From assembly GCA_038128265.1 (NCBI GenBank), contig JAYPJE010000001.1:1-47518 (forward strand): a stretch of DNA of 47,518 nt, given 5' to 3'. The DNA is from Gemmatimonadota bacterium. Lineage in GTDB: Bacteria > Latescibacterota > UBA2968 > UBA8231. Position numbers and translations under genes: made by a program. A model generated the notes under the pieces. The model worked only from the letters and a program-made list of their open reading frames with translations, had not been told where the DNA came from and did not search any database. This document shows, one piece after another, positions 27,613 to 44,749 of this stretch. Every line of letters begins with the position of its first letter. Positions within the stretch are counted from its first letter, which is position 1.

Positions 27613-28875
27613 ATGGCCTATTCGCAGTTCGATCGAGTGCCCAATCACTACGCTGGTCCCATCATTCAGCAAATCAAGGACTTCCGCCAGGAAAAAGGTA
27701 GGCGCTCGCTCGCTCCGACTGCGCTGCAGATCGGTCAGTTGGAACTGCTTATTCCGCGTCACTTCGGCTTTTGTTTTGGCGTAGAGCGCGCTATCCACAT
27801 GGCATTTTCTACCCTGGAAAAGCAGCCCCAAAAACGCACGTACCTCGTCAGCGAAATTATTCATAACCCGCTGGTAAACAGCGAATTGAAAGAGCGCGGC
27901 GTCGAGTTTGTCTACGACGCAGACGGACAGCGCCAGGTGGGTGAAGACGATCTCAGCGGCGACGACGTCGTGCTCATACCGGCCTTTGGTACCACGCTGC
28001 AGGTCGAGGATTCGCTGCGGGCCAGCGGCATCGATATTGACAGCGAAAGCTACCGCGAACACTACGACACCACGTGTCCGTTTGTATCTAAGGTATGGAA
28101 GCGCGGAGAGGAGCTGGGGCGCGAGGGCTACACGATTGTTATTCATGGAAAGTATCGCCACGAGGAGACGCAGGCGACGCACTCCCATACAAAGGAACAC
28201 GCTAAGACGCTGGTTGTGCTGGATTGTGAGGAAGCGGAAAAAGTGGCTTCCTTTATCGTGGGCGAAATGAGTGTGGAGGCCTTTCGCGCCGAGTTCGCCG
28301 GCAAGTGGTCAGAGGGTTTTGACCCCGAGCGCGATTTGGAGCGCGTTGCCGTCGTTAACCAGACGACGATGTTGGCGGCCGAAACGCAGCGCGTAGCGCA
28401 GATACTGTCGGCCGCTATGGAGCGGCGATACGGCAGCGATGATATCGAGTACCACTGTGCCGACACCAACGATACGCTGTGCTATGCGACCAACCAGAAC
28501 CAGAATGCCACGCACGCGCTGCTGCGGTCAGAAGCCGATCTGGCGCTGATTGTCGGAGGCTACAACAGCTCTAATACGTCGCACTTGGTGGAGATTTGTT
28601 CGCAGGTTATGCCGAGCTACCTCATCGCCAATAGCGACGAGCTGGTTTCTGCGCAGCAGATTCGCCACTTTGACATAGGTCGCAAGGAAATTGCGTGCGG
28701 CGAAGAATGGCTGCCCCAGCAGCGGCCGCTGCGCATGGTCATTACTTCCGGTGCATCGTGTCCGGACGTGCTCATGAACCAGGTGATTGAGCGCGTGGTA
28801 GAACTCTGTGGATATAGTCGCGAAGACATTGAGCGCGGCCTGAATGCACTGCGCCTGTTTGAGGAGGCCGCATGA
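27613..28875 (+). CDS. ispH: 4-hydroxy-3-methylbut-2-enyl diphosphate reductase (long form)
   Basis: Three Fe-S Cys motifs 'FGFCFGVERA', 'DTTCPFV', 'DTLCYAT..NQ'; 'EIIHNP', 'NQTTM', 'GGYNSSNT', 'TSGASCP'. Confidence 0.95.
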   Translation: MAYSQFDRVPNHYAGPIIQQIKDFRQEKGRRSLAPTALQIGQLELLIPRHFGFCFGVERAIHMAFSTLEKQPQKRTYLVSEIIHNPLVNSELKERGVEFVYDADGQRQVGEDDLSGDDVVLIPAFGTTLQVEDSLRASGIDIDSESYREHYDTTCPFVSKVWKRGEELGREGYTIVIHGKYRHEETQATHSHTKEHAKTLVVLDCEEAEKVASFIVGEMSVEAFRAEFAGKWSEGFDPERDLERVAVVNQTTMLAAETQRVAQILSAAMERRYGSDDIEYHCADTNDTLCYATNQNQNATHALLRSEADLALIVGGYNSSNTSHLVEICSQVMPSYLIANSDELVSAQQIRHFDIGRKEIACGEEWLPQQRPLRMVITSGASCPDVLMNQVIERVVELCGYSREDIERGLNALRLFEEAA

Positions 28876-29177
28876 TTGTTGCGCTGGTTAAGGGACATAT
28901 AGTGTCCTCTGCCAAAGTGGATAATTTAGAGGGCAAGAAGCTGCTGCTGGTTGAGATTCTCGCCGCCACGCCCGAGGGGCTTAAGCACACGGACCAACAC
29001 ATGGTGTGCATTGATTCGGTGCAGGCTGGCGAAGGAGAGCTGGTCGTCGTAGTGCAGGGCTCTTCGGCGCGCATCGCTCCAGGGATGAGCGACGTGCCGG
29101 TCGATGCGTTGGCGATAGGAATCGTCGATTCGCTGCAGGCGTTTGGTGGTCAGCTAGATCTGGAGGTCGGCTCGTGA
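28872..29177 (+). CDS. BMC vertex (pentamer) protein, EutN/CcmL family
   Basis: 'V.G.IVSS.K...L.GKKLLLV', 'CIDSVQAGEGELVVVVQGSSAR', 'PVDA...GIVD'; ATGA overlap with ispH stop. Confidence 0.93.
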   Translation: MIVALVKGHIVSSAKVDNLEGKKLLLVEILAATPEGLKHTDQHMVCIDSVQAGEGELVVVVQGSSARIAPGMSDVPVDALAIGIVDSLQAFGGQLDLEVGS

Positions 29178-29419
29178 AGCGCTGTCGCGTCATCGGGCAC
29201 GTCGTTGCCAACGCCAAGCACAGCGTGCTGGACGGGCAAAAGATCATGGTCGTCAAGCCCGAGCCCGATGGGCCCATGCAGCTGGCGTTAGACGGCGTTG
29301 GTGCGGGCATCGGTTCGCTGGTTATCGTCTCCGAATCGGGGACGGCTGGTGCTCAAGTGACCGGGTGGGAGCAACCGCCGGCGCGCAGCGTCATCGTTGG
29401 CATTATAGACGGAGCGTGA
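29174..29419 (+). CDS. BMC vertex protein, EutN/CcmL family
   Basis: 'RVIGHVVANAKH..LDGQKIMVV', 'ALDGVGAGIGSLV', 'PARSVIVGIID'; GTGA overlap. Confidence 0.88.
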   Translation: MKRCRVIGHVVANAKHSVLDGQKIMVVKPEPDGPMQLALDGVGAGIGSLVIVSESGTAGAQVTGWEQPPARSVIVGIIDGA

Positions 29420-29423
29420 TGAT

Positions 29424-29690
29424 ATGAAATTGGGAAAAGTCGTTGGCACGGTTGTCCTATCGCACTGCATCGATTCTTTTCGCGGTCGCCCTCTGCATCT
29501 AGTGATGAGCGTAGATGAAGAGCTGCAACCTGTCGGCGAAGCGGAGGTCTGCGCCACCTGGGAGGCGCGCAGCGAGGGGGAACTCGTCGTGTTCGAGGTC
29601 GCGCGCGAAGCGGCCAATATCGCCGATCCGGCCATTCCATCCGACGCGTCGATTATTGGCAAAGTGGAAAAGGTGCATATAGCGCGCTAG
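29424..29690 (+). CDS. BMC vertex protein, EutN/CcmL family (divergent)
   Basis: 'MKLGKVVGTVV', 'GELVVFEVAREA', 'PSDASIIGKVE'. Confidence 0.85.
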   Translation: MKLGKVVGTVVLSHCIDSFRGRPLHLVMSVDEELQPVGEAEVCATWEARSEGELVVFEVAREAANIADPAIPSDASIIGKVEKVHIAR

Positions 29691-29717
29691 GGTATATCCG
29701 CCAGTGTACAAATAGAT

Positions 29718-29754
29718 CGCCCGCGCTACTGCAGGAGCAGCGCGGGCGTTTTTT
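29718..29754 (+). terminator. Rho-independent terminator ending the ispH-vertex triplet transcript
   Basis: CGCCCGCGCTACT-gcagg-AGCAGCGCGGGCG followed by TTTTTT. Confidence 0.8.
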
Positions 29755-29772
29755 GTGCAATACAGCGGTGTT

Positions 29773-30573
29773 TTAGGGCCCCACTACGCCATTTTTGAGC
29801 TGGCCGATACCCTCTAATTCAACGATGACTTCATCGCCTGGTTTGAGCCAGACCGGCGGTTTGCGCGCGAAGCCGACGCCCTGCGGAGTGCCGGTGAGAA
29901 TGACGGTGCCCGGCAGCAGGGTAGTGTCCTGGCTCAGGAAGCTGATGATCTCGGCGACGGAGAAAATCATATCACCGGTGGTGTGGTCCTGCATGGTCTG
30001 GCCGTTGAGTATCGTTTTGATGCCCAAGTTCTGCGGGTCAGCAATTTCATCAGCCGTGACCAATACCGGTCCGAGGGGGCAGAACGTGTCGAAGCCTTTG
30101 CCGCGTATCCACTGACCGCCGCCGGCATTGAGCTGCCACTTGCGCGCCGATACGTCGTTGGCGCAGGTGTAGCCCAGCACGCAGTCCAGCGCATCTTCTA
30201 CGCGCACATCGCGCACCGGCTTCCCAATAACGGCGGCCAGTTCGCACTCGTAGTCGACCTCTTCATCCTGCTGACAGGCGGGCAGGCGTATGGGGTCGCC
30301 GGGGTGGCAGAGCGTGCTGGTCGGCTTGGCAAAGACAATGGGAAGCTTGGGCTCTTCCATGCCCGACTCGGCAGCGTGCTCCCGATAGTTGAGCCCTATA
30401 CAGTATATGTTGGTGGGTGCTACGGGAGCCAGCAGTTTGGCAATGGGAGCGGTTGATCCCGTCGGCGACAGGCCCGCGTAGAGAGTGCCCTCGAGCACCT
30501 CGGCTTCGCCCCCCTCGCGTTCCATGCCGTAGCGCTCGCGGTTTTCCCCGTCTAAGAAACGAATAATGCGCAT
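29773..30573 (-). CDS. Fumarylacetoacetate hydrolase (FAH) family protein
   Basis: 'IYCIGLNYREHA.E', 'VDYECELA', 'GYTCANDVSARKWQ', 'RGKGFDTFCPLGP', 'ILTGTPQGVG'; SD AGGAGG before ATG 30573. Confidence 0.93.
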   Translation of the reverse strand: MRIIRFLDGENRERYGMEREGGEAEVLEGTLYAGLSPTGSTAPIAKLLAPVAPTNIYCIGLNYREHAAESGMEEPKLPIVFAKPTSTLCHPGDPIRLPACQQDEEVDYECELAAVIGKPVRDVRVEDALDCVLGYTCANDVSARKWQLNAGGGQWIRGKGFDTFCPLGPVLVTADEIADPQNLGIKTILNGQTMQDHTTGDMIFSVAEIISFLSQDTTLLPGTVILTGTPQGVGFARKPPVWLKPGDEVIVELEGIGQLKNGVVGP

Positions 30574-30610
30574 ATGTCCTCCTCTTTTTTTTGCCGCGTT
30601 ACAGGCGATC

Positions 30611-30681
30611 AAGGTAGTCGTTGCACAGCATAAGTGTCAAGCCGAAGCCAACTTGACGGAGGAGATACCCCCGACTATTTT
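30611..30681. promoter_or_regulatory. Divergent sigma70-like promoters for the FAH gene (-) and the main BMC operon (+)
   Basis: + strand TTGACG (30653-58)-17 nt-TATTTT (30676-81); - strand TTGACA (30640-35)-18 nt-TACCTT. Confidence 0.5.
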
Positions 30682-30733
30682 TCTGGGGCTGTATACGCAC
30701 GTTGCGATCTATACATCCAGTGAGGTGAAAAGC

Positions 30734-32161
30734 GTGGCTCAGAACGCGAGCGAAGAGCAGATTCGCAAAATAGTCGAAGAGGTTGTAACCCGCATCGTCA
30801 CAAATGGCCATGGCGCGTCCCTGCCCGCTGCCGATCCCGGCGAGGGGGGCGTATTCCCCACCATAGATGCGGCTACTCAGGCTGCCACGCGGGCGCAGGA
30901 GCAGCTGGTTGCCATGACGTTGGAGCAGCGCCGGTCGATCGTAGAGGCCATTCGCCACGTGTCGCGCGAGCGCGCTGAAGATTTTTCCCGTCGCGCCCTG
31001 GAAGAGACGGGAATGGGGCGGCTGGAGGACAAGATTCAAAAGCACCGGGTTGCCGCCGATGCAACGCCTGGCATCGAAGACCTCGAAGCCAAGTCGTGGA
31101 CCGGCGATCACGGGCTGACCGTAGTCGAAATGGCGCCCTACGGCGTGATTGGGGCTATCACGCCTTCTACCCACCCGGTGCCGACGATGGTCAATAACGC
31201 CATCTGCATTATTGCCGCGGGCAACTCGGTGGTATTCAACGTGCACCCCGGCGCAAAAAACGTGTCGATGTATGCGGTGCGTCTGCTCAACGAAGCCATC
31301 GTGCAGGTTGGTGGGCCGGCTAATTTGATAACGGCGGTAGCAGAGCCAACGCTGGAGACGGCCAACGAATTGTTTACGCATCCCGGCATTCGCCTATTGT
31401 TGGTCACTGGTGGACCGGGCGTTGCGCAGGCCGCTATGGCCAGCCCCAAAAAAGCCATCGTTGCCGGTCCGGGCAATCCGCCCGTCGTCGTTGATGAGAC
31501 GGCAGACCTCAAGAAAGCAGCCAGAGACATTATCGACGGCGGCGCCTTTGATAACAATATCCTCTGCCTGGGCGAAAAACAGGTCTTTGTCGTCGATAGC
31601 GTCGCCGATGAGCTCAAACGCCACATGGTCGACTACAGCGCCTACGAGCTCAGCGCGCAGCAAATCGAAGAGCTGGCCGCCGTGGCTTTTGTGAAGGGGC
31701 CTGACGGTCATCCCTTGGCCAACCGCGAATTGGTCGGGCGCAGCGCATGGGTGCTGGCCGATCGCATCGGCGTTAAGCTGGGCGAGTCACTGCGTATGCT
31801 CATTGGCGAAACGCGCGCCGATCACGTCTTTGTCGAAGAGGAGCAGATGATGCCCTTTTTGCCAATCGTGCGGGTGCGCGACGTCGATGAGGGCATTCGC
31901 TTGGCGGTGATTTCTGAGCACGGCTACAAGCATACGGCCATTATTCACTCGCGCAACATCGAAAATATGCACAAGATGGCGTGTGCATCGGATACGACTA
32001 TTTTTGTAAAAAACGGGCCTTCTTTTGCCGGCGTCGGTTTAGGGGGCGAGGGCTTTGGAACCTACTCGATCGCCGGTCCGACCGGCGAGGGGCTCACCTC
32101 GCCACGGACGTTTACGCGCGCGCGGCGCTGTGCGTTGGTCGACTACTTCCGCATTACCTAA
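30734..32161 (+). CDS. CoA-acylating aldehyde dehydrogenase, EutE/PduP family, with N-terminal encapsulation peptide
   Basis: GTG start with SD GAGGTG; 'EETGMGR.EDK..K', 'TGDHGLT..E.APYGVIG..TPSTHP', 'AGPGNPP', catalytic 'FDNNILCLGEK', 'TGEGLTS..TFTR.RRC'; N-terminal 'EEQIRKIVEEVVTRIV'. Confidence 0.93.
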   Translation: MAQNASEEQIRKIVEEVVTRIVTNGHGASLPAADPGEGGVFPTIDAATQAATRAQEQLVAMTLEQRRSIVEAIRHVSRERAEDFSRRALEETGMGRLEDKIQKHRVAADATPGIEDLEAKSWTGDHGLTVVEMAPYGVIGAITPSTHPVPTMVNNAICIIAAGNSVVFNVHPGAKNVSMYAVRLLNEAIVQVGGPANLITAVAEPTLETANELFTHPGIRLLLVTGGPGVAQAAMASPKKAIVAGPGNPPVVVDETADLKKAARDIIDGGAFDNNILCLGEKQVFVVDSVADELKRHMVDYSAYELSAQQIEELAAVAFVKGPDGHPLANRELVGRSAWVLADRIGVKLGESLRMLIGETRADHVFVEEEQMMPFLPIVRVRDVDEGIRLAVISEHGYKHTAIIHSRNIENMHKMACASDTTIFVKNGPSFAGVGLGGEGFGTYSIAGPTGEGLTSPRTFTRARRCALVDYFRIT

Positions 32162-32173
32162 ATCGGTGGTGCG

Positions 32174-32473
32174 ATGATACTAGGACAGGTGCGCGGGCGC
32201 GTGGTGTCGACGGCCAAGGTGGGCAGCTTAAACGGCAAAAAGCTGCTGGTCGTCGAAGTGGTGTCCGTGCGCGAGCACGGGCTGGTGCGCACCGGTCGCG
32301 AAATGGTCTGCGTCGACGCGGTGCAGGCCGGCGAGGGCGAACTGGTCTTCGTGGTTCAAGGGTCGTCGTCGCGCATTGCACCCGACATGCGCGACGTCCC
32401 CACTGATGCGGTGATTGTCGGCATTGTCGACTCGCTGCAGTCGATGGGAAACGCAATGGAGCTGCGCGATTAA
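32174..32473 (+). CDS. BMC vertex protein, EutN/CcmL family
   Basis: 'QVRGRVVSTAK..SLNGKKLLVV', 'VDAVQAGEGELV.VVQGSSSR', 'PTDAVIVGIVD'; close paralog of 28872..29177. Confidence 0.93.
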   Translation: MILGQVRGRVVSTAKVGSLNGKKLLVVEVVSVREHGLVRTGREMVCVDAVQAGEGELVFVVQGSSSRIAPDMRDVPTDAVIVGIVDSLQSMGNAMELRD

Positions 32474-33169
32474 ATGGCGGCAGATGGATTACAGGGCTTG
32501 GACCGCGCAGCGATAGAACAGATTGTGCGCCGCGCCGTCTACGACTTTATGCCCGATGGCCAATTGGGACGAACGGCCGGTCCCGACGTGTCGCCGGTGC
32601 CGCGCCTAGTGGTCAATATCTCGGCGCGCCATATTCACCTCAACCGCGAAGCCATGGATATCCTCTTCGGGCCGGGCAGCGAGTTGACGGTGCAAAAGGC
32701 GCTCTACCAGGAGGGCGCCTTTGCCGCTGAAGAAACGCTATCGGTTTTTGGGCCGCGCAAGCAGGTGATTGCCAACGTGCGCGTCTTGGGGCCACTGCGC
32801 GCGTATAACCAGGTCGAGTTGGCCTTTACAGACGCGCGTTTCTTGGGCATTGATGCGCCCGTGCGGCTCAGCAGCCGCGTCGAAGGTTCGCCGGGGTGCT
32901 TCCTCGTCGGTCCACACGGCGGCCTCGAATTGCAGGAAGGCGTAATTCGCGCAGCGCGGCACGTGCATATGAGCCCGGCGGAAGCCGAGTACTATGGCGT
33001 GCAGGGAGGCGATCTCATGCGCTTAGTAGTGGAGAGCGAGCAGGGCGGTTCCTTGGAAGGGCTGATTTGCCGCGTCAGCGATCAGGAAAAGCTGGAGGTG
33101 CACTTGGATACGGACGAGGGCAATGCGCTCGATCTGGTGCACGCCCGCAAAGTATATTTGGAAAAGTAG
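32474..33169 (+). CDS. pduL: PduL-type phosphotransacylase with N-terminal encapsulation peptide
   Basis: 'VNISARHIHL', 'VRVLGPLR...QVELAFTDAR.LGI.APVRLS', 'IRAARHVHMSP', 'EVHLDTDEGNA'; N-terminal 'LDRAAIEQIVRRAVYDFM'. Confidence 0.93.
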   Translation: MAADGLQGLDRAAIEQIVRRAVYDFMPDGQLGRTAGPDVSPVPRLVVNISARHIHLNREAMDILFGPGSELTVQKALYQEGAFAAEETLSVFGPRKQVIANVRVLGPLRAYNQVELAFTDARFLGIDAPVRLSSRVEGSPGCFLVGPHGGLELQEGVIRAARHVHMSPAEAEYYGVQGGDLMRLVVESEQGGSLEGLICRVSDQEKLEVHLDTDEGNALDLVHARKVYLEK

Positions 33170-33200
33170 AGTAGACTTCGCACACACCAGGAGGAAAGCG

Positions 33201-33761
33201 ATGTCGGATGCAATCGGAATGGTAGAAACGGTCGGGCTGGTGGGCATCGTCGAGGCTGGCGATGCCATGGCCAAAGCGGCTAGCGTGCAGCTCTTGGGCT
33301 GGGACAAAGTTGGTTCGGGGCTGGTAACGGTGTTCTGTTCGGGCGACGTGGCGGCCGTAAAGTCGGCCGTCGATGCCGGATCGACGGCGGCGGCCAAAGT
33401 GGGTAAGGTGCATTCGGTGCACGTGATCCCGCGTCCGCACGAAGAGTTAGGCGCCATTATGCCGCAGCGCGGCGAGGCGGGCGCATCGGATGGCGTGCGC
33501 GCGCTGGGGCTCATTGAGACGCGCGGTGCCACCGGTGTGATTGAGGCGGCCGATGCAATGAGCAAGGCGGCCGATGTGGATATTGTCAGAGTGCAGGAAA
33601 TCGGTGGGGGGTACATCACCGTGCTAGTCAGCGGCGACGTAGGCTCGGTGCAGGCGTCCGTTAGCGCCGGAGCCGAGGCCTGTGAGCGCGTTGGCGAATT
33701 GGTTTCGCAACACGTGATCCCGCGCCCACACGACGATGTGGTCGCCCTCTACTTGAGCTGA
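33201..33761 (+). CDS. BMC shell protein with two tandem non-permuted BMC domains
   Basis: SD AGGAGG; 'AIGMVET.G...AGDAMAKAA...GSG...[10 protein letters not shown]...HVIPRPH' then 'ALGLIETRG...ADAMSKAA...HVIPRPH'. Confidence 0.93.
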
Positions 33762-33777
33762 TAGGAGATACGCTACT

Positions 33778-34041
33778 ATGAAAGCACTTGGTATGGTGGA
33801 GACGAAAGGGCTGGTGTGCGTGGTCGAGGCCCTAGATGCAATGCTCAAAACGGCGGATGTGAGCTTTGCCGGTCAGAAGCGCGTCGGCAGCGGCTTTGTC
33901 GCCGTGCTGGTCGAGGGCGATGTCGCAGCGGTTAAAGCCGCGGTCGATGCCGGTGCCAGCGCAGCGCAGCGCGTTGGCGAGTTGCGCAGCGTGCACGTGA
34001 TTCCGCGTCCGGTATCGGACTTGACGCAGCACCTGTCGTAG
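33778..34041 (+). CDS. BMC shell hexamer protein (BMC-H, PduA/EutM-like)
   Basis: 'ALGMVETKG...[10 protein letters not shown]...KRVGSG.V...[13 protein letters not shown]...HVIPRP'. Confidence 0.95.
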
Positions 34042-34053
34042 ACTGCGCGTCGA

Positions 34054-34548
34054 ATGGCTTCCGTCCTCTACATTGAAGAGGCCGTAGTTACGGGCGATGT
34101 GCTATCGCGTCGCCACGCTGACGAAGGGCAGGTGTGCGTTAGCGAAGGCGCGATTGTCACGCCGACGGCGTGGGACTATCTGCGCCAAAAGCGCCTGCAG
34201 CTCAGCAGGGGAAAGAGCCCTGAGCCCGCGGCCTCCGCTGTGCAAGCCCCCGCGCGGCTCATTGCCGAAGTGGAAGCGCCGCAGATGGACGGGACGGGAC
34301 GCTGTGACCAGCCCGGACGCTCGTGTGGCTGCCAGACGGAAGAATTTGGCTCGGGCTACGTCGAGCCTAGTTCGTGTCGCGACTGCGCTATTTACCAGAT
34401 GAAGAGTCGAGGGGAGAGCGGGGCCAGCTGCCACGGCTGCAACCGCCGCGTGCTGCTCGACCAGTTGATCGAGTCTGGACAGGGCGTCGACCCAGAGCAG
34501 CTGATTGGCGAAGTGACGGCCTTGGTCGTGCACCGCTTGGAGGATTGA
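34054..34548 (+). CDS. BMC-associated hypothetical protein, Cys-rich, with C-terminal amphipathic helix
   Basis: In operon. N-terminal module 'VVTGDVL...AIVTPTAWDYLR'; Cys cluster C-x6-CGC...CxxC...CxxC; C-terminal 'DPEQLIGEVTALVVHRLED'. Confidence 0.75.
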   Translation: MASVLYIEEAVVTGDVLSRRHADEGQVCVSEGAIVTPTAWDYLRQKRLQLSRGKSPEPAASAVQAPARLIAEVEAPQMDGTGRCDQPGRSCGCQTEEFGSGYVEPSSCRDCAIYQMKSRGESGASCHGCNRRVLLDQLIESGQGVDPEQLIGEVTALVVHRLED

Positions 34549-34549
34549 G

Positions 34550-35131
34550 ATGCCCGCCGCCATCGGCCTGATAGAAGTTGAGGGAGTGGCCGGCATTATC
34601 GTGGCCGCCGACGCTGCGCTCAAAGCGGCCGACGTCGAGCTGCTCGGCTGGGAGTCGATCGGCGGATTTACTACCGTGCTGTTTAGCGGTTCAATCAGCG
34701 ATGTGGGAGCGGGCTTGGACAGCGGTCGTGCCGCGGCTGCGCACATCGTAGAGCACGTGGTTGCCGCGCCCGTTACACAGCCGCAGGAAGCCTGCCTGCG
34801 CTTTGCGAGTTTTCCCGTTCAAAAAGAGGCGGCCGTGCGCGAAGGGGCGTTGGGCCTCGTTGAGACGCGCGGCTACGCGGCCCACGTGTATGCCGACGAC
34901 GATATGGTCAAGGCCGCCGATGTAGAAGTGGTCAACGTGCTGACGGTGCACAATCGAGTGGTATGCTCTCTGGTGCAGGGCGACGTCGGCGCCGTGCGCG
35001 AAGCCATCGCGCGGGCCGAGGCTCGCCTGCGCGAGTACCCACATTTGCTTAGCACGTTTGTTTTGCCACAGCCGCGCCGGGAGGTGTTGCAGACCTTTGC
35101 CGTGCCGCTGCGAGGAGGGGGCAGTGTCTAA
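34550..35131 (+). CDS. BMC shell protein with two tandem BMC domains (divergent)
   Basis: 'AIGLIEVEG...AADAALKAADV', second 'ALGLVETRG...DDMVKAADV...GDVGAVREAI...VLPQP'. Confidence 0.9.
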   Translation: MPAAIGLIEVEGVAGIIVAADAALKAADVELLGWESIGGFTTVLFSGSISDVGAGLDSGRAAAAHIVEHVVAAPVTQPQEACLRFASFPVQKEAAVREGALGLVETRGYAAHVYADDDMVKAADVEVVNVLTVHNRVVCSLVQGDVGAVREAIARAEARLREYPHLLSTFVLPQPRREVLQTFAVPLRGGGSV

Positions 35132-36275
35132 GGCAATAGGCGTGCTTGAGACGCGCGGTATGGCTTCCCTGCTAAACGCGACCGACGCGATGTTAAAAGT
35201 GTCCGAAGTGCGCGTCGCTGGTCGCCACGGCATTGGTTCGGGTTGGGTAACGGTCGTAATTGAGGGCAGCGTCGCCGATGTGCATGCCGCCATGGCCGTT
35301 GGTCGGGTTGAGGCCCAGCGCTACGGAGAGCTCATTGGCGCCGAGGTGATTCCGCGTCCTGAAACCCGCGCTCAGAATGCGATGCCGCACGGTGCAGCCG
35401 TCGACGGAGCCCTGGCGACTGACGGACGGGCATTGGGCGTTGTGGAAACGCAGGGCCTATCGCCGCTGATCGCGGCTGCGGATGCCATGGTTAAAGCAGC
35501 CGCCGTCGATTTGTGCGGCTGGGCCTTTATCGGCGGCGCGCTGTGCCACGCTGTCGTACGCGGTGATGTGGCCGCCGTGCAAACAGCCGTTGAGGTTGGC
35601 CGTCGCGCGGCAGAAGGTGTGGGTGTTACCTATGCGACACTCGTTCTGCCGCAGCCCGTAGCCGGTATTGCACCGCTGTTGCCGGTCTCGTCCAGCGGCG
35701 ATGTGGGAGCGGGCGGTGCACTTGGCGTGGTAGAAACAATAGGATACGCGACGGTAGTGGCGGTAGGCGATGCCATGGTTAAGGCCGCCGATGTTCAGGT
35801 GCAGCGATTGAGCATTGGCAGCGGAGGACGCATTGCCGCCCTCGCAGTGGGGAGTCTAGACGACGTGCAGGCCGCTGTGGCTGCAGGTCAGCAAGAAGCC
35901 AAGGCCGTGGGGGAACTGGACGGCAGCACGCTGGTCTCGCGGCCGGACGGGGCGACCATGGCCTGCTTTGCCGGTCCGGTAGAAGGACCGCGCCGTGCCG
36001 GTGCGCGCCGTGCGCTCGGACTAATAGAGACGCGCAGCACCGTTGCTTTGGTGCGCGCCGTAGACCAAATGTTAAAAGCGGCCGACGTCGAGTACGAAGG
36101 TAGTTTTAAGGTGGGTTACTTTTTGACCGCCAGCGCGGTGCGCGGCGATGTCGGAGCTGTTAGAGTGGCCATTGATGCCGGCGCACAGGAAGCGGCAAAG
36201 CACGGCGAGCTCGTCTCGGCGCACGTCATTCCGCAGCTCTACGGCGACGTTGAGCTGTGCCTGCCGCATCAATGA
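35124..36275 (+). CDS. BMC shell protein with four tandem BMC domains
   Basis: GTG start after SD GAGGAGG; four repeats beginning AIGVLETRG / ALGVVETQG / ALGVVETIG / ALGLIETRS, each with a D-[AQ]-M-x-K motif and ending IPRP / LPQP / VSRP / IPQL. Confidence 0.9.
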   Translation: MSKAIGVLETRGMASLLNATDAMLKVSEVRVAGRHGIGSGWVTVVIEGSVADVHAAMAVGRVEAQRYGELIGAEVIPRPETRAQNAMPHGAAVDGALATDGRALGVVETQGLSPLIAAADAMVKAAAVDLCGWAFIGGALCHAVVRGDVAAVQTAVEVGRRAAEGVGVTYATLVLPQPVAGIAPLLPVSSSGDVGAGGALGVVETIGYATVVAVGDAMVKAADVQVQRLSIGSGGRIAALAVGSLDDVQAAVAAGQQEAKAVGELDGSTLVSRPDGATMACFAGPVEGPRRAGARRALGLIETRSTVALVRAVDQMLKAADVEYEGSFKVGYFLTASAVRGDVGAVRVAIDAGAQEAAKHGELVSAHVIPQLYGDVELCLPHQ

Positions 36276-36327
36276 TAACTAAAGGCATGGCGGCATTGGG
36301 CGCCGTGCGCAATTGAGGATAGCGATT

Positions 36328-37500
36328 ATGGTTCGCATAGACGATTCGGTGATTACGGCACAGGTCTTGCGGGATCGATTGGGCGACGAGCGCGAAGTCG
36401 AGATCTGCCCAAGGGCCAAACTAACGCCGTCAGCGCTCGACTTTTTGCGCGAGCGTGGCATTGAGGTTGCCCACCGCGAAGCCCATGCTACGGACGGTGC
36501 GGCCGCAGCTGTGTCGGCCTCTTCCGCTTCGTCTTCTTCTCAGCGCCGCGAGTTCAAGGGCATCTTCTGTCCCAATATCGTCATCTTCGACAGCGCGGGG
36601 CGCATCAACTACAGCGAGATGGAACGCTATGTGAACTGGCTGATCGACGCGGGGATTCACGGGCTCTACCCCAATGGCAGCACGGGCGAGTTTGTGCGCC
36701 TGTCGTGGGAAGAGCGCCAAGACGTGGTGCGTCTAATTGCCGATGTTAACGGCGGACGCGTCCCCATTCTGGCAGGAGCGAGCGAAGCCAATACGCGCGA
36801 CGTGCTGAAAATGGCTGAGTTCTACGCCTCGATTGATGTAGACGCCATTTCGCTGGTGCCGCCCTTTTACTACAAGATCTCCGACGAGAGCCTCTTTGAG
36901 TATTTTGCCGAGATCGCCGAGGAATCACCCCTCGATATTTTGCTCTACAACATACCGCAGTTTACGCAGGAACTGCCGTTGGAGCTGATGGAGCGCCTGT
37001 TGCCCTACGAGCGCATTTTTGGCACGAAGGATTCCAGCCGCGACCTGCCCCGCTTGATTAACACCATGCATCGCCTGCGCGCTCAGCGCCCCGACTACGT
37101 CGTGCTGGTCGGCTGCGAGGAGATTCTGTTTCCATCGGTTATGATGGGAGCTAGTGGTGGCACGATTGCGACATCGGGTATTGTGCCAGAGGTAATCGTT
37201 GAACTCTACCAACAGGCCCTGGCCAATAACGTTGACCGCGCTCGTACGCTACAGTACCGCATTCTCGATTTGATCAACCTCATGCTGCTCGGCGTCAACT
37301 TTCCCGAAGGGTTTAAAACCGGGGTAGCCGTGCGCGGTTTTGACGTGGGGCCTGCGCGTGCGTCGACGAGTCCGGCCGAGCAGGAGTACCTGCTGAAACT
37401 CGAGGCGCAGATTGGCTGCGTGCTGAGCGATATGGGATATTCGGTGCGCGGCGCGCGCGCCTGCCCCGTTACCAATCTGCCGCCTATCGTAGGCCGTTGA
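36328..37500 (+). CDS. DHDPS/NAL-family class I aldolase/lyase with an N-terminal BMC-associated extension
   Basis: 'GLYPNGSTGEF..LS.EER', 'LVPPFYY', 'LLYNIPQ', Schiff-base Lys 'GTKDSS'; about 70-aa N-terminal extension with Ala/Ser linker. Confidence 0.88.
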   Translation: MVRIDDSVITAQVLRDRLGDEREVEICPRAKLTPSALDFLRERGIEVAHREAHATDGAAAAVSASSASSSSQRREFKGIFCPNIVIFDSAGRINYSEMERYVNWLIDAGIHGLYPNGSTGEFVRLSWEERQDVVRLIADVNGGRVPILAGASEANTRDVLKMAEFYASIDVDAISLVPPFYYKISDESLFEYFAEIAEESPLDILLYNIPQFTQELPLELMERLLPYERIFGTKDSSRDLPRLINTMHRLRAQRPDYVVLVGCEEILFPSVMMGASGGTIATSGIVPEVIVELYQQALANNVDRARTLQYRILDLINLMLLGVNFPEGFKTGVAVRGFDVGPARASTSPAEQEYLLKLEAQIGCVLSDMGYSVRGARACPVTNLPPIVGR

Positions 37501-38588
37501 GCAAACCCTCGGGCGCACAGGTCCTCGTTGTTGGCGCTGGTATAATCGGCCGTTCGATTGCCTACTATCTCTCTCGCGCCGGCGCGCACCCCACACTGAT
37601 CGAAGCGAGCGCAGGTCCTTCCGAAGCCAGTCGTGCATCGCTTGGCGTTCTCACCCACTTTAGCGGCGGTGCCAGCACGTATGCGCTATTCATACGCGAT
37701 AGCCATGCGGCACACGAGCCACTGGCTGGTGAACTAGCCGACGAAACGGGCATTGATGTGGGATGGCGTCCGCTCGGTGGGATTGATCTCGTCATCGACG
37801 ATGAAGACGAAGAGCGGGTCGAGGGGCTCTGGAACGAAGGTCGCGCGCGCGGCGTGGTGCTCGAGCGCTTGGATGCAGATAGCGTGCACAAGATGGAGCC
37901 CGTCGTTTCGGGCGCCGTGCGCTGGGGCCTGTTGTTTCCCGAAGATCAGCGCGTTGCTCCCATGCTGCTGGGACAGGCGTTGCTCGAAGGTGCTGTATCG
38001 CGCGGTGCTCATGTGCACTACGACGAGCGTTTGCTACATATTGAAGCGTGCGCGGACGGCGGCATCGTTGCACAGACGTCGCGCGCAAGGCGCCACGCCG
38101 ATTTTGTCGTGCTGGCTGCCGGGGCTTGGACGGCGCGTCTGGCCGAATCGATTGGTGCCAGCGTTCCCGTACGTCCGGTGCGCGGACAGCACGGCTGCTT
38201 TGCCGGCCCCGCGCTGCGCCACGTGCTGCGCCAGGGTGGGCATCAGCTCCTCTCGGGTGCACGCGGAACGCTGGTCGGGGCCACTGCCGAAGAGGTCGGC
38301 TTTGTCAATGAAACGACGCAGGAGGCCGCGCGCGCGCTGGGGTCGGTGCACGCGCAGCTGCTAAAGGGGCCTTCGGTTCTGCGCTCACAGGGAGCCGGTC
38401 TGCGCGCCAAACCCAAGGCCGGCCGGCCAATGATCGGTCCGCTTTCCGACCATCCGCGCGTTTTTATTGCGACCGGTCACTATAAAAACGGCGTCCTAAT
38501 GGGGCCGCTGACGGGACAGGTCGTTACGCGCTGGTTGCTCACAGGAGATCCGGGGCGCGATATGGAGCCCTTTGTGCCCGAGCGCTAA
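37497..38588 (+). CDS. FAD-dependent oxidoreductase, DAO/glycine oxidase (ThiO/DadA-like) family
   Basis: 'VLVVGAGIIG', 'AS.ASLG', 'VVLAAGAW', 'PVRPVRGQ', 'GLR...GRPMIG', 'ATGHYKNGVLMGP.TG'; start overlaps the upstream stop. Confidence 0.85.
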   Translation: MSKPSGAQVLVVGAGIIGRSIAYYLSRAGAHPTLIEASAGPSEASRASLGVLTHFSGGASTYALFIRDSHAAHEPLAGELADETGIDVGWRPLGGIDLVIDDEDEERVEGLWNEGRARGVVLERLDADSVHKMEPVVSGAVRWGLLFPEDQRVAPMLLGQALLEGAVSRGAHVHYDERLLHIEACADGGIVAQTSRARRHADFVVLAAGAWTARLAESIGASVPVRPVRGQHGCFAGPALRHVLRQGGHQLLSGARGTLVGATAEEVGFVNETTQEAARALGSVHAQLLKGPSVLRSQGAGLRAKPKAGRPMIGPLSDHPRVFIATGHYKNGVLMGPLTGQVVTRWLLTGDPGRDMEPFVPER

Positions 38589-38698
38589 TGGGAGTAGTCG
38601 CGCGCTCCTGCCCGCGGGGACGGAGCGCGCGGAGTGTCACAATATTTCGGTTCACATTTGTTTGTTTTCACATATATTAGGAGATCTAGGAGGACGTA

Positions 38699-39640
38699 AT
38701 GACTATTGCGACAGACGAGTTAATTGATTCGCTGAATTCCGTTACTTCGATTCCCGTCGTGCCCTTTCGCGGCGGTAAGATCGACTACGATGCCCATGCC
38801 AAGAATATCCGTTACCTGATGGATAACAATCACTTGGATGGAGATCGCCGGCGCGTAATCGGCATAGCAGGCACGAGTTTGATTCACCATATCGGGCGCG
38901 ATGAGCAGGTGCGCCTGATCGATTTTACCGGCCAACAAATGGGTGGGCGCGGCGTGCTTATGTCCGGTATTGCGCCCAATCCCATTGCCGACGCCGAAGA
39001 GCTGATTCGCCGCGAGGCCGCGCTGTCCGTACCACCCGACTGCTATTTGGTGATGCCGCTTACGGGCGTGGGCAATGCCGAGGGCATTTTCCAAAACCAC
39101 CTGGCTATGGCCGAGCGCCTGGGGCGCGAAACGGGCGCGCGCTTCCTCTACTATCTGCGCAATAAAGCCGAGCGCGAGACGGCCGTTCGCTTGCTAAACG
39201 AGTCGGAGCACTTTATCGGCCTCAAGATCGGCACCGATATCGACGACGTGAAGCCCATTGTCGAAGGGGTTAACGACGGGGCCGGTATTGTTATATGGGG
39301 TGTGGGAGATCGCTCTACCGGGCCCGCTAGCCATGGGACAATCGGTCATACTTCCGGTATTAACGTGGTCTTTGTTCGCGCTTCGGACGCGATCAACAAC
39401 GCCCAGCGCAGCGGCGATATGCAGGCTTCGCAGCGCGTTGAAGACGAAATTGCCGCCTTCGAGGAAATTCGCTTTCGCGACAGTCGCGTGTACAATTACT
39501 CTGCTGTGGTAGAGGCGATGCACATAGTCGGTAGCGATGCGATTGATGGCGGCGATGGCGGCCCGTTCAATCCCCGGGTGCCGTCCGAGGTTGCGCGCGA
39601 AGTGGCGGCCGCTATCGAGCCTCTGATGCAGTACCACTAG
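38699..39640 (+). CDS. Divergent DHDPS-family TIM-barrel protein (loosely 5-dehydro-4-deoxyglucarate dehydratase-like)
   Basis: SD AGGAGG; 'SIPVVPF..GKIDYDAH', 'LYYLR', 'FIGLKIG'; canonical GxxGE replaced by 'AGTS'. Confidence 0.6.
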   Translation: MTIATDELIDSLNSVTSIPVVPFRGGKIDYDAHAKNIRYLMDNNHLDGDRRRVIGIAGTSLIHHIGRDEQVRLIDFTGQQMGGRGVLMSGIAPNPIADAEELIRREAALSVPPDCYLVMPLTGVGNAEGIFQNHLAMAERLGRETGARFLYYLRNKAERETAVRLLNESEHFIGLKIGTDIDDVKPIVEGVNDGAGIVIWGVGDRSTGPASHGTIGHTSGINVVFVRASDAINNAQRSGDMQASQRVEDEIAAFEEIRFRDSRVYNYSAVVEAMHIVGSDAIDGGDGGPFNPRVPSEVAREVAAAIEPLMQYH

Positions 39641-39674: not shown

Positions 39675-39929
39675 ATGGCTAAGAGAAGGCGCCGGCGATC
39701 GCATAGTAATTCGACTCCGCTCAAGACGTATTTGGCTCTGTTTGTGCTATGCGGCGTGGCAGCACTGGTGCTACAGGTGCTTTTTGCGGTGCCGGACAAG
39801 GTCGAACAATACGTCAGCGAGAAGGTGGAGGCTTCGGTAAGTAACGCGATCCAGTCCGAGGTGCAAGCGGCTAAGAAAGAAGCTGCGGCTTCTGCCGTGC
39901 CGAGCTATTCGGTCCCTTTGCCGAGGTGA
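39675..39929 (+). CDS. Small single-TM hypothetical protein
   Basis: Basic N-terminus (KRRRRR) followed by TM 'YLALFVLCGVAALVLQVLFAV'. Confidence 0.6.
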   Translation: MAKRRRRRSHSNSTPLKTYLALFVLCGVAALVLQVLFAVPDKVEQYVSEKVEASVSNAIQSEVQAAKKEAAASAVPSYSVPLPR

Positions 39930-40210
39930 TCTAGGTAGGCTTCCCACTCGATGGGCAGCATATATCGCTTTTGGTTATTGCATTCTTTACAGCAGGGGAC
40001 GACGTTGGACTTCACGGTGTAGCCGCCGCGGCTTAGCGGCACGACGTGGTCCATCGTCAGCTCTGTCGGTGGGAAACGGTCCTGACAGTAGTAACAGTGC
40101 CCGGAAGCGCGTCGGTTTTTCCACCACTGGGATCGACGCATTTGACGGGCTTTATTTTTTTCCCTGTTTACATGTTCTTCAGATGCGGTAGAGAAGTAGT
40201 CTTCTGTCAT
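39905..40210 (-). CDS. Small HNH endonuclease-family protein
   Basis: 'CYYC...LTMDHVVPLSRGG....SNVVPCCKECNNQK'. Confidence 0.9.
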   Translation of the reverse strand: MTEDYFSTASEEHVNREKNKARQMRRSQWWKNRRASGHCYYCQDRFPPTELTMDHVVPLSRGGYTVKSNVVPCCKECNNQKRYMLPIEWEAYLDHLGKGTE

Positions 40211-42636: not shown

Positions 42637-43424
42637 GTGAGTCAGGGCGTTCGCCCAGTGCCGTTGCGCCGATTCAAATTCACGATATGACGATTGCCTA
42701 CCACAAGAAGCCGGTGCTGTGGGACGTCGACATAGACGTGCCCGAAGGCGTGCTGGTTGGTATTATCGGTCCGAATGGGGCCGGCAAGAGCACGATGATA
42801 AAGGCGGTAATGGATTTAGTGCCCAAGGCATCGGGCTGGGTGAAAATATACGACCGGCCCTACGATCAAATGCGCAGTGCCATCGGCTATGTTCCGCAGC
42901 GCGAGTCGGTCGACTGGGACTTTCCAGTCAACGCTCTCGACGTAGTGCTGATGGGTCGCTATGGCCATGTCGGATGGGTGCGCCGACCGGGAACAGAAGA
43001 TCGCCGCATCGCCGCGGAAGCGCTTGAGAAAGTTGGCATGGGCGAGTTCGCTCAGCGGCAAATCAGCCAGCTATCGGGCGGCCAGCAGCAGCGCGTATTT
43101 TTGGCGCGGGCGCTGGCGCAGGATGCACGTATCTACATGATGGACGAACCCTTTGCCGGCGTCGATGCGGCGACGGAAAGGGCGATTATCGACATTCTCG
43201 TCGAGCTGCGCCGTCAGGGCAAGACTATTTTGGTCGTGCACCACGATCTGCAGACGGTAACCGAATACTTCGACTGGGTCATCATGTTGAATATGCGCGT
43301 AGTTGCTGCCGGGCCGACGAGCGAGGTATTTACCAACGAGAATCTGCAGAAGACCTACGGCGGCCGCCTGACGGTGCTGAGCCAGGCGGCTCAGGCGATG
43401 GCCGACCAGCGGCGAGGCCACTGA
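42633..43424 (+). CDS. troB: Metal ABC transporter ATP-binding protein (TroB/MntB-like)
   Basis: Walker A 'GPNGAGKST', '[13 protein letters not shown]', '[15 protein letters not shown]', 'MDEPFAGVD', 'VHHDL'; ATGA overlap start. Confidence 0.93.
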
Positions 43425-44749
43425 TGTTCGAGAACGCCCTGCGCTTTTTAAGCCTGGCCGATGCCAACGTGCGCTTCGTGCTCTTTGGCTCGCTGCTCAT
43501 TGGTGCGACGGGGGGCATGCTGGGATGCTTTGCCGTGCTGCGTCGGCGCAGCCTGATCGGCGATGCGCTGGCACACGCAGCGCTGCCGGGCGTGGCGCTG
43601 GCCTACCTGGCCACGGGGAGCAAGGCGCTGTCGGTCTTGCTGGTAGGAGCGACGTGCGCCGGCGTTGTTGGCGTGCTGTTTATTCAATTTGTGACCCAGT
43701 TTACGCGGATCAAAGCCGATTCGGCTATCGGCATCGTGCTGTCGGTATTCTTTGGCATTGGCATTGTCTTGCTAACGCATATCCAGCGCGTTGGCGGCGG
43801 CAACCAAAGTGGTTTGGATAAGTTCCTGTTCGGGCAGGCCGCCTCCATGGTCGGCGACGACCTCGTCGTCATGACGGTGCTGGCGGCTATTATTATCGTT
43901 GCCGTCTTACTGTTCTATAAAGAATTCAAAGCGCTAATTTTTGACCCGGGTTTTCTCAACACGCTGGGCTTTTCGACGCGCCGCATCGACGGTTTGCTGA
44001 TGGGGCTGATCGTTCTGACGGTAATGGTCGGTTTGCAGGCCGTTGGCGTTGTGCTTATTGCCGCCATGCTCATAACGCCCGCCGTGGCGGCGCGCTTCTG
44101 GAGCGAGCGTCTCGGCACGATGGTCATCGTATCGACGGCATTTGGCGCTATAGCCGGCGTCGTCGGCACCTTTATCAGTTCGCTGGCGCCGCGCATTCCC
44201 ACGGGGCCGGTTATGGTGCTTGTCGCAACGCTATTCTTTGTCGTTTCGGCCGTGTTCGCTCCGCGCCGCGGCGTGCTGGCTCGCTGGCGTCGCCATCGCC
44301 ACAACGCCCAGCGAGAATCTCGCCATCACTTTTTGCGCGCCTTTGTCGAACTGGTCGAGAAAGAAGGCGAGGCTTCGATTTTCTCGACGTCGCTGCTGGC
44401 GGCTGAGCTGGGGTGGAAAGCTCCACGCGTCGATCGCTTGGGTAAGCGAATCGCCCGCCAGGGCTACGCCCAGCGGCGCGACGGGGGGTGGGCGTTGACG
44501 CCGAGCGGGTTTGAAGAAGGGGTCTTTATCGTCAAGTCGCACCGCCTGTGGGAACACTACCTGTACCATCGCTCTATTTTGGACGCCGACCACGTCGACC
44601 GTCCGGCGGACGAAGTTGAGCATCTGCTGACGCCGGAGATTATTACCCGCCTTGAGGAAATTGTCGCTGAGGAGCGCGGTATCGATCCGGATCAGGTCGT
44701 TAATATACACGGATCGCTCAGTCACTACCGGCGCGGAGGACGCGAGTAA
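43424..44749 (+). CDS. troC: Metal ABC transporter permease with C-terminal DtxR-like domain (TroC/YtgC-like)
   Basis: ABC-3 'SLIGDALAHAALPG', 'FLFGQAA', 'KEFK...FDP', 'PTGP'; tail 'SHRLWEHYL...HVDRPADEVEH'. Confidence 0.88.
   Translation: MFENALRFLSLADANVRFVLFGSLLIGATGGMLGCFAVLRRRSLIGDALAHAALPGVALAYLATGSKALSVLLVGATCAGVVGVLFIQFVTQFTRIKADSAIGIVLSVFFGIGIVLLTHIQRVGGGNQSGLDKFLFGQAASMVGDDLVVMTVLAAIIIVAVLLFYKEFKALIFDPGFLNTLGFSTRRIDGLLMGLIVLTVMVGLQAVGVVLIAAMLITPAVAARFWSERLGTMVIVSTAFGAIAGVVGTFISSLAPRIPTGPVMVLVATLFFVVSAVFAPRRGVLARWRRHRHNAQRESRHHFLRAFVELVEKEGEASIFSTSLLAAELGWKAPRVDRLGKRIARQGYAQRRDGGWALTPSGFEEGVFIVKSHRLWEHYLYHRSILDADHVDRPADEVEHLLTPEIITRLEEIVAEERGIDPDQVVNIHGSLSHYRRGGRE

Follow-up and report, generated by a model that had tools for sequence, protein, structure and literature searches.

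We analysed a 47,518-nucleotide stretch of DNA from a Gemmatimonadota bacterium (assembly GCA_038128265.1, contig JAYPJE010000001.1; the window, below), which carries a bacterial microcompartment (BMC) locus at positions 28,872 to 39,640. By its gene content and order, the locus is best taken as a further member of the catalogued type MUF2 ('metabolosome of unknown function 2') and not as a new BMC type. We consider it likely that the stretch holds the main locus of a MUF2-type metabolosome built on a core of CoA-acylating aldehyde dehydrogenase (AldDH) and PduL-type phosphotransacylase (PTAC), with two candidate aldehyde-source aldolases, of which the class I enzyme, a DHDPS-family protein encoded in the locus itself, would be carried as cargo. 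To MUF2, as to some other metabolosome types, no substrate has been assigned so far, and the DHDPS-family enzyme provides a concrete, testable candidate for its aldehyde-generating step.

MUF2 was catalogued by Sutter, Melnicki, Schulz, Woyke and Kerfeld (2021, Nat Commun 12:3809; PMC8217296, Supplementary Data 2), whose entry comprises 13 loci, mostly from Gemmatimonadetes together with one from Handelsmanbacteria and one from Armatimonadetes, and lists the function as unknown. As the entry describes it, the main locus encodes an AldDh (pfam00171) with an N-terminal encapsulation peptide (EP) and a PTAC (pfam06130), and the shell consists of three BMC-P proteins with another copy of one of them, BMC-H fusions that are double or 'very unusual quadruple', and a satellite BMC-H with a C-terminal extension (PMC8217296). 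In five of the loci an uncharacterised protein with a C-terminal EP and six conserved Cys lies between BMC-H and the BMC-Ts; a class I aldolase (pfam00701) encoded nearby has the same N-terminal domain as this protein (PMC8217296). The same entry states that the MUF2 AldDh is closest to that of the type PVM, and ties MUF2 to PVM-like substrates through a pfam00596 aldolase, not through the pfam00701 enzyme (PMC8217296).

The window carries an AldDH with an N-terminal EP-like helix and a PTAC; a BMC-P triplet and a paralogous further copy (P1 and P4); BMC genes of two, two and four domains; and a Cys-rich protein with six conserved Cys and a C-terminal helix, which has an N-terminal domain (N-domain) in common with the DHDPS enzyme. 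A search of the whole assembly counted nine BMC domains in the shell genes of the window (2+1+2+4) and located a tailed satellite BMC-H outside it (contig C8, 24603-25094; 163 aa, the BMC domain N-terminal and followed by a C-terminal tail). Gene order is parallel as well. Consecutive locus tags of the catalogue member CME10 correspond to shell proteins of 101, 79 and 93 aa, two genes, 99 aa, one gene, 187 aa and 87 aa, and the window reads 101, 81 and 88 aa, the FAH and AldDH genes, 99 aa, the PTAC gene, about 186 aa and 87 aa. A related locus from a Tara Oceans Gemmatimonadetes metagenome-assembled genome (MAG; L005), with P1, P3, P4 and BMC-H proteins of 101, 93, 99 and 87 aa, probably comes from the genome of CME10 itself. 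None of the isolate names attached to our related loci appears in the supplement of the catalogue. An earlier note on this DNA had called the locus an apparently unclassified type, a view that it held open to refutation by a described type with the same gene set; contents, order and odd features fit MUF2 as the 2021 entry sets it out, and that label has to be given up.

Other types were considered and rejected: SPU, as no DeoC or RpiB is encoded in the window; ACI, for which the catalogue describes a satellite AldDh together with a hydroxyacid dehydrogenase; MIC4 and MUF3, whose loci it describes as containing acetate kinase along with a PduS/PduT pair; and PVM. A literature search for 'MUF2' returned nothing beyond the 2021 catalogue and its preprint, and one for Gemmatimonadota together with 'bacterial microcompartment' returned nothing relevant. 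The text of the MUF2 entry makes no mention of three genes of this locus, those for the DAO-family oxidoreductase, the second DHDPS-like protein and the FAH-family enzyme.

To follow the DHDPS-family enzyme among relatives, we compared the proteins of the window by tblastn with 71 related loci from Gemmatimonadota, 'Latescibacterota' and Handelsmanbacteria MAGs. Orthologues of at least 65% identity, N-domain included, were present in 66 of the 71 loci; the remaining five comprised three contig-end fragments, one 50%-identical homologue from Phycisphaerae and one 31% relative. In every evaluable locus (62/62 each), the DHDPS gene is immediately preceded by the quadruple-BMC gene H4, with the double-BMC gene T2b upstream of that. 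Near the DHDPS gene we also found the genes for the Cys-rich protein (45/62 evaluable loci), AldDH (41/57), PTAC (41/57), the FAH enzyme (32/56), DAO (47/65) and the second DHDPS-like protein (44/64). The conservation of the DHDPS-like gene in orthologous loci, on which the earlier note had staked its proposal, is thereby confirmed, as is its tight linkage to shell genes.

Two architectures account for most of the sample: type A, resembling the window, with 48 loci, and type B, with T2b-H4-DHDPS only, with 18. In type B a core of AldDH, two BMC-P genes, a class II aldolase and acetate kinase is found elsewhere, and the T2b-H4-DHDPS order nevertheless holds in all 18 loci. Given this distribution across the two types, the DHDPS-shell module is the constant part, to which DAO, the Cys-rich protein and the second DHDPS-like protein are add-ons. 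The Phycisphaerae homologue has no N-domain; it ends in a C-terminal amphipathic EP-like helix, and its gene overlaps a double-BMC gene. This comparative evidence strengthens an encapsulated, aldehyde-generating role for the DHDPS-family enzyme, which we regard as plausible: the enzyme is probably cargo and a second aldehyde-generating aldolase.

Some further features of these relatives were noted. The DHDPS homologue and double-BMC gene of the Phycisphaerae MAG form a two-gene module (L065:9986-11727), with no other BMC genes within the 15 kb examined. Downstream of T2b-H4-DHDPS, type-B loci (L008:11250-19139 and others) encode a conserved 314-aa protein of no family, two PhyH dioxygenases, a Zn-alcohol-dehydrogenase-like protein, a diaminopimelate-epimerase-like protein and two MR_MLE enzymes. 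Of these, one PhyH and the 314-aa protein still lie close by in the more divergent loci L049, L052 and L062. Positions 2520-8815 (+) of the window encode a 1463-aa protein with M28 peptidase and FtsX domains and then a DUF6785/DUF6784 protein, and the same pair stands just upstream of the DHDPS-shell module in type-B loci, an instance of shared synteny.

The N-domain is common to the Cys-rich protein and the DHDPS enzyme at 33% identity over 51 aa (BLASTP, E 2e-7), with T10, T33, P34 and D38 invariant in their joint alignment. The AlphaFold2 model of the DHDPS enzyme places the N-domain at residues 1-49 (pLDDT ~80), a disordered linker at 50-72 (pLDDT 30) and a TIM barrel at 78-368; the N-terminal extension that the earlier note had pointed out is real, about 75 residues preceding the Pfam domain, which begins at residue 81 of the ORF from 36313. 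In the model of the Cys-rich protein the N-domain is a small alpha/beta unit (pLDDT 93-96), and an EP-like helix occupies the C-terminus (147-163). The Cys residues C84, C93, C108, C111, C126 and C129 of this protein are conserved in 41-43 of 43 orthologues, and C91 in 34 of 43. Pfam searches at E <= 10 gave nothing meaningful for the N-domain or the Cys-rich protein.

Of 1.84 billion representative proteins, 851 matched a profile built from 99 N-domains at E <= 0.001, and 87 of these reached E <= 1e-10; in three complete type-B genomes the sole match to the profile was the DHDPS enzyme. Among the best 150 of the 851 matches, many proteins besides the Cys-rich and DHDPS types measure 200-255 aa and carry the domain at roughly residues 40-100, and 27 of the 85 proteins scanned from these 150 have a weak PF02502 (RpiB-like) C-terminal half. 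Five of 22 scanned N-domain proteins match TIGR02536 (eut_hyp, ethanolamine-utilisation) weakly over its positions 161-205, the C-terminus of that family. An N-terminal amphipathic helix was seen in the five proteins of about 200-255 aa that we examined. On this distribution, the N-domain looks like a module associated with BMC cargo. A complex prediction with three T2b copies and the N-domain returned a score of 0.00, which is no evidence on binding in either direction.

'Pyruvate-dependent class I aldolase-like' is the only description of the DHDPS-family enzyme that we consider secure from its sequence. The Lys in GTKDSSRD (K234), N208, F212 and the PNGSTGEF motif vary little or not at all across 65 sequences. 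Searched as a single sequence, its best solved relatives are the Picrophilus 2-keto-3-deoxygluconate (KDG)/2-keto-3-deoxy-6-phosphogluconate aldolase (4uxd, E 4.4e-39) and Escherichia coli YagE (2v8z, E 1.8e-35), at about 40% identity at most. With a family profile the bit scores were 154.4 for YagE, 153.7 for 3eb2, 153.5 for KDG aldolase, 147-151 for DapA, 126-142 for NAL, 126 for 3na8 and 117 for 4-hydroxy-2-oxoglutarate aldolase. DapA binds aspartate semialdehyde through an Arg five residues after the catalytic Tyr; that position is Phe here, as in the Picrophilus enzyme, which disfavours a DapA function. The enzyme also has three invariant Cys (263, 364 and 379), and its barrel is followed by a conserved tail (CPVTNLPP); DHDPS-family enzymes are not known for either feature.

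Some enolase-superfamily members dehydrate sugar acids to 2-keto-3-deoxy acids. The genome holds 48 loci of this superfamily (MR_MLE-like) against 3 DHDPS-family loci (tblastn; for MR_MLE and PhyH, E <= 1e-10 and at least 60% coverage), and 30 PhyH-like dioxygenase loci as well, a very large expansion of the two for a 4.3-Mb assembly (e.g. C11:37716-38825 and C9:86766-87896). The best NCBIfam model for the FAH protein is 2,4-didehydro-3-deoxy-L-rhamnonate hydrolase, at 216 bits, below the cut-off of 500. Together with the lack of RhaA/FucI-type isomerases described below, this model match and the 48 MR_MLE-like loci are circumstantial pointers to 2-keto-3-deoxy acids.

The other candidate aldehyde source, the class II aldolase, was sought with PF00596. 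Exactly one match occurred in each of ten complete related chromosomes (10/10). Matches were likewise found in 38 of the 41 genomes of the relatives sample (which includes this assembly, itself without a match), in 21 of the 22 high-quality genomes, in 5 of 7 of the same genus and in 3 of the 5 nearest MAGs, the last two counts not being independent, as the same-genus genomes overlap with the five nearest MAGs. In the nearest relatives the satellite block consists of a TrkA-like gene, the class II aldolase, a membrane protein and a BMC-H of 95-100 aa, and in the satellite loci examined the aldolase bears a C-terminal amphipathic EP-like helix. The statement of the earlier note that a class II aldolase is absent therefore stands for the window and for this assembly and does not carry over to the relatives, which encode one (10/10 complete genomes), with an EP-like tail and beside a BMC-H in the satellite loci examined.

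Several results weigh against the reading of a MUF2 metabolosome with two aldolases. The assignment to MUF2 extends no further than a comparison of gene content, order, odd features and shell-protein lengths with the catalogue description. The pfam00596 aldolase satellite of that description is missing here: PF00596 gave 0 matches in the whole assembly, which is 84.5% complete (102 contigs), and two same-genus genomes, one of them ~94% complete, are also without it, so that the absence could be a real lineage-specific loss. RhaA/FucI-type isomerases, the only isomerase families sought, were found neither in this assembly nor in two complete type-A genomes, and a simple PVM-like phosphorylated fucose/rhamnose route fits poorly for that reason; RhaA is present in two type-B genomes. 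Sugar-acid aldolases lead DapA and NAL by a small margin in the family profile (154 versus 147-151 and 126-142 bits), and all NCBIfam models score below their cut-offs for the DHDPS enzyme, for example archaeal KDG aldolase at 118 bits against 390. Searches of five complete type-B genomes yielded no orthologue of the second DHDPS-like protein, DAO (only 24-32%-identical paralogues) or the Cys-rich protein. Lastly, the N-domain lacks both a relative of solved structure (the PDB gave no Foldseek match to the Cys-rich model at E <= 0.001) and a demonstrated partner.

The missing class II aldolase bears on a reading in which this is a distinct, unclassified metabolosome. Its only signature enzyme would be the DHDPS-family aldolase, cleaving 2-keto-3-deoxyfuconate, 2-keto-3-deoxyrhamnonate or 2-keto-3-deoxyxylonate to pyruvate and lactaldehyde, glycolaldehyde or glyoxylate, with the class II aldolase uninvolved. 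The absence of PF00596 here and in two of the seven same-genus genomes, all seven of which keep both N-domain proteins, speaks for it, as do the missing RhaA/FucI-type isomerases, the kinship with KDG aldolase and YagE, the below-cut-off FAH model and the abundance of MR_MLE-like loci. We nonetheless judge it improbable, in view of a type with the same gene set in the published catalogue entry and of a class II aldolase, EP-tailed in the satellites examined, throughout nearly all of the relatives. The neighbours of the satellite aldolase are missing as well: the TrkA query had a best match of 26% identity in this assembly and the membrane-protein query none, and BLASTN of three relatives' satellite loci against the assembly found no match. 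Because these flanking genes are lacking along with the aldolase and the genome is 84.5% complete, an assembly gap is the simplest reading, and is probably the cause.

A second alternative is that the DHDPS-family enzyme is cytosolic and merely lies beside shell genes, its N-domain being a regulatory or oligomerisation module unrelated to targeting. The enzyme has no canonical short amphipathic EP, and in RpiB-like and Cys-rich proteins the N-domain coexists with a separate EP-like helix and so need not itself be a targeting signal; the lack of a known fold relative or partner falls on the same side. Set against this are the invariable position of the gene directly after two shell genes, even where the enzymatic core is elsewhere, the EP-tailed Phycisphaerae homologue overlapping a shell gene, and the company that the N-domain keeps: the proteins examined among the best 150 of 851 matches are Cys-rich-type, DHDPS-type or about 200-255 aa in length and headed by an amphipathic helix, some of these last being weakly RpiB-like or TIGR02536-like. 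We think a cytosolic enzyme very unlikely.

A third alternative takes the DHDPS, DAO and DHDPS-like trio as an amino-acid module, in which DAO would oxidise an amino or imino acid (e.g. D-hydroxyproline or a 4-hydroxy amino acid) and a DapA-family deaminase/aldolase would deliver 2-oxoglutarate semialdehyde or glyoxylate to the AldDH. Pairing of DAO-family with DapA-family enzymes is a known pattern of bacterial D-hydroxyproline catabolism. The DAO gene overlaps the DHDPS stop codon, and DAO finds its best solved relatives among the glycine oxidases (E 4.9e-31). With the glycine oxidase ThiO model TIGR02352 it reaches 153.7 bits, below the equivalog cut-off of 250.8, and it is classed here as a member of the DAO family. 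4-Hydroxy-2-oxoglutarate aldolase and 3na8 are, moreover, clear relatives of the DHDPS enzyme. On the other side, the five complete type-B genomes keep the DHDPS-shell module without an orthologue of DAO or of the second DHDPS-like protein; neither of these two proteins has a terminal extension, and the second is very divergent (E 4e-6). We know of no BMC described as CoA-acylating 2-oxoglutarate semialdehyde or glyoxylate and passing the product on to PduL. A hydroxyproline-type pathway was rejected as the principal explanation on account of the type-B genomes, and we give the amino-acid module as a whole only a slim chance. The second DHDPS-like protein keeps a Lys at the Schiff-base position when aligned with 3e96, 3d0c and DapA, and in the ESM Atlas it matched only uncharacterised DHDPS-family clusters.

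Returning to the MUF2 metabolosome with two aldolases, we propose that an aldehyde would be made and retained within the shell, where AldDH would oxidise it to acyl-CoA and PTAC would convert acyl-CoA to acyl-phosphate; a cytosolic acetate-kinase-type enzyme, one of which is encoded on contig C46 of this assembly, would then use the acyl-phosphate for ATP. One source of aldehyde would be the class II (pfam00596) aldolase, with its EP-like C-terminal helix, from the satellite locus seen in relatives. The other would be the class I DHDPS-family enzyme, splitting a 4-hydroxy-2-oxo (2-keto-3-deoxy) acid into pyruvate and aldehyde, and anchored to shell or core by the N-domain on its disordered linker. 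DAO, the second DHDPS-like protein and the FAH enzyme would be accessory, since they are found in only part of the loci, lack extensions, and leave the DHDPS-shell module independent of them.

A bolder version, which is possible although we would not favour it at present, is that the true signature of this MUF2 subgroup is the class I DHDPS-family aldolase. It would be fed by non-phosphorylated 2-keto-3-deoxy sugar acids (e.g. from fucose or rhamnose acids via enolase-superfamily dehydratases) and recruited by an undescribed targeting domain of about 50 residues that is common to RpiB-like cargo of other BMC types and the TIGR02536 C-terminus. In either version, the comparison adds to the catalogue entry the coupling of the pfam00701 enzyme to two particular shell genes in every evaluable relative, even with the core elsewhere; a planctomycete homologue with an ordinary EP-like tail in place of the N-domain; and the recurrence of the N-domain in other proteins bearing EP-like helices. 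The N-domain is accordingly a candidate new cargo-anchoring module.

The features of the locus are collected in Table 1. A Pfam scan of the open reading frames (ORFs) of the window recovered every gene that the earlier note had listed, each where it had been placed: four BMC-P genes, four shell genes with nine BMC domains, AldDH, PTAC, the Cys-rich protein, the DHDPS enzyme, DAO, the second DHDPS-like protein and FAH. Diol dehydratase, EutBC, glycyl-radical enzyme, DeoC/RpiB and Rubisco families, which had been reported lacking, indeed had no match among the scanned ORFs. The encapsulation-like helices proposed for AldDH and PduL can be seen by eye in the translations, unscored, as an amphipathic stretch near the PTAC N-terminus and another at residues ~62-77 of the longest AldDH ORF, or ~6-21 from the 30734 start.

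Table 1. Features of the BMC locus and their positions in the window
Feature	Position	Strand	Evidence and remarks
BMC-P (vertex) gene P1, 101 aa	28872..29177	+	Pfam EutN_CcmL E 1.9e-23; 59% identity to P4
BMC-P gene P2, 81 aa	29174..29419	+	Pfam EutN_CcmL E 7.1e-20
BMC-P gene P3, 88 aa	29424..29690	+	Pfam EutN_CcmL E 9.4e-12
Terminator-like 13-bp G+C-rich hairpin with T-rich tail	29718..29748	-	Between convergent ends of P3 and FAH gene; suggestive by position only
FAH-family hydrolase/isomerase, 279 aa	29773..30612	-	Pfam FAA_hydrolase E 1.3e-78; opposite strand within locus
CoA-acylating aldehyde dehydrogenase (PduP/EutE-like)	30734..32161 (longest ORF 30566)	+	Pfam Aldedh; N-terminal amphipathic EP-like helix
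BMC-P gene P4, 99 aa	32174..32473	+	Pfam EutN_CcmL E 1.3e-25; P1 paralogue
PduL-type phosphotransacylase (PTAC)	32474..33169	+	Pfam PTAC E 1.9e-64; N-terminal EP-like helix
Tandem (double) BMC-domain shell protein T2a, ~186 aa	33201..33761 (longest ORF 33123)	+	Pfam BMC x2; domains 33210-33437, 33501-33728
BMC-H shell protein, 87 aa	33778..34041	+	Pfam BMC E 6.9e-26
Cys-rich protein, 164 aa, 7 Cys	34054..34548	+	No Pfam/NCBIfam family
Tandem (double) BMC-domain shell protein T2b, 193 aa	34550..35131	+	Pfam BMC x2
Quadruple BMC-domain fusion H4, 383 aa from GTG 35124	35124..36275 (longest ORF 35058)	+	Pfam BMC x4
DHDPS/NAL-family class I aldolase-like enzyme	36328..37500 (longest ORF 36313)	+	Pfam DHDPS E 5.9e-57
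DAO-family FAD oxidoreductase, 363 aa	37497..38588	+	Pfam DAO E 2.8e-55; start overlaps DHDPS-gene stop
Divergent second DHDPS-like protein, 313 aa	38699..39640	+	Pfam DHDPS E 4e-6, above Pfam cut-off

For H4 the GTG start at 35124, preceded by GGAGGGGG, is the most likely; T2a likely starts at 33201 and AldDH at 30725 or 30734. The longest AldDH ORF would overlap the divergent FAH gene. Two core enzymes exceed their NCBIfam cut-offs, AldDH for the subfamily PRK15398 'aldehyde dehydrogenase' (656 bits versus 403) and PTAC for PRK15070 (219.6 versus 209). BMC-P pairs other than P1 and P4 are 32-37% identical or not aligned. An Rfam scan of the window yielded no RNA families, and counts of promoter- and terminator-type sites in the region were no higher than in shuffled controls.

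The locus is flanked by housekeeping genes, namely ispH, queC/queF, those of leucine biosynthesis, argJ, accA and a Zn/Mn ABC system. P1 starts (28872) in overlap with the stop codon of ispH (lytB; 27613-28875), and many related loci likewise have ispH ahead of the BMC-P triplet; a transcript may thus join the vertex genes to this essential isoprenoid gene. Directly after the BMC locus lies a gene for a small HNH endonuclease (101 aa; 39905-40210, -), whose place there is conserved, at 56-94% identity, in 45 of the 61 related loci that could be evaluated. HNH endonucleases are usually mobile, which makes this constancy odd for the gene class. Further downstream, two ABC-3 metal permeases (43424-44749 and 44749-46029, +) each carry a C-terminal Fe_dep_repr_C, an iron-dependent-repressor dimerisation domain, and the pair adjoins znuA, an ABC ATPase and a divergent DtxR/FeoA-type regulator.

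Compared with solved enzymes, the DHDPS-family protein resembles KDG aldolase and YagE in the aligned motifs around the catalytic Tyr and Lys (YNIPQFT and G-x-KDSS), and differs from them in its tethered N-domain and in a conserved C-terminal tail with an invariant Cys. Compared with known microcompartments, the locus shares with the PVM fucose/rhamnose metabolosome the logic of class II aldolase, AldDH and PTAC and the presence of multiple BMC-P proteins, and a further point of contact is the Phycisphaerae genome with an EP-tailed homologue of the DHDPS enzyme beside a double-BMC gene. Unlike PVM, the main locus here has no class II aldolase or acetate kinase, and it adds the Cys-rich protein, the quadruple BMC fusion and the N-domain-bearing class I aldolase. 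The SPU metabolosome, with its DERA and RpiB-like enzymes, differs in that the aldolase here belongs to the DHDPS/NAL family, not to DeoC, and that the window has no DeoC or RpiB gene. SPU nevertheless offers two parallels, a class I aldolase cargo that, as described in PMC11585597, has an N-terminal extension of ~70 residues, and RpiB-like proteins, a weak likeness to which (PF02502) marks the C-terminal half of some proteins that share the N-domain found here.

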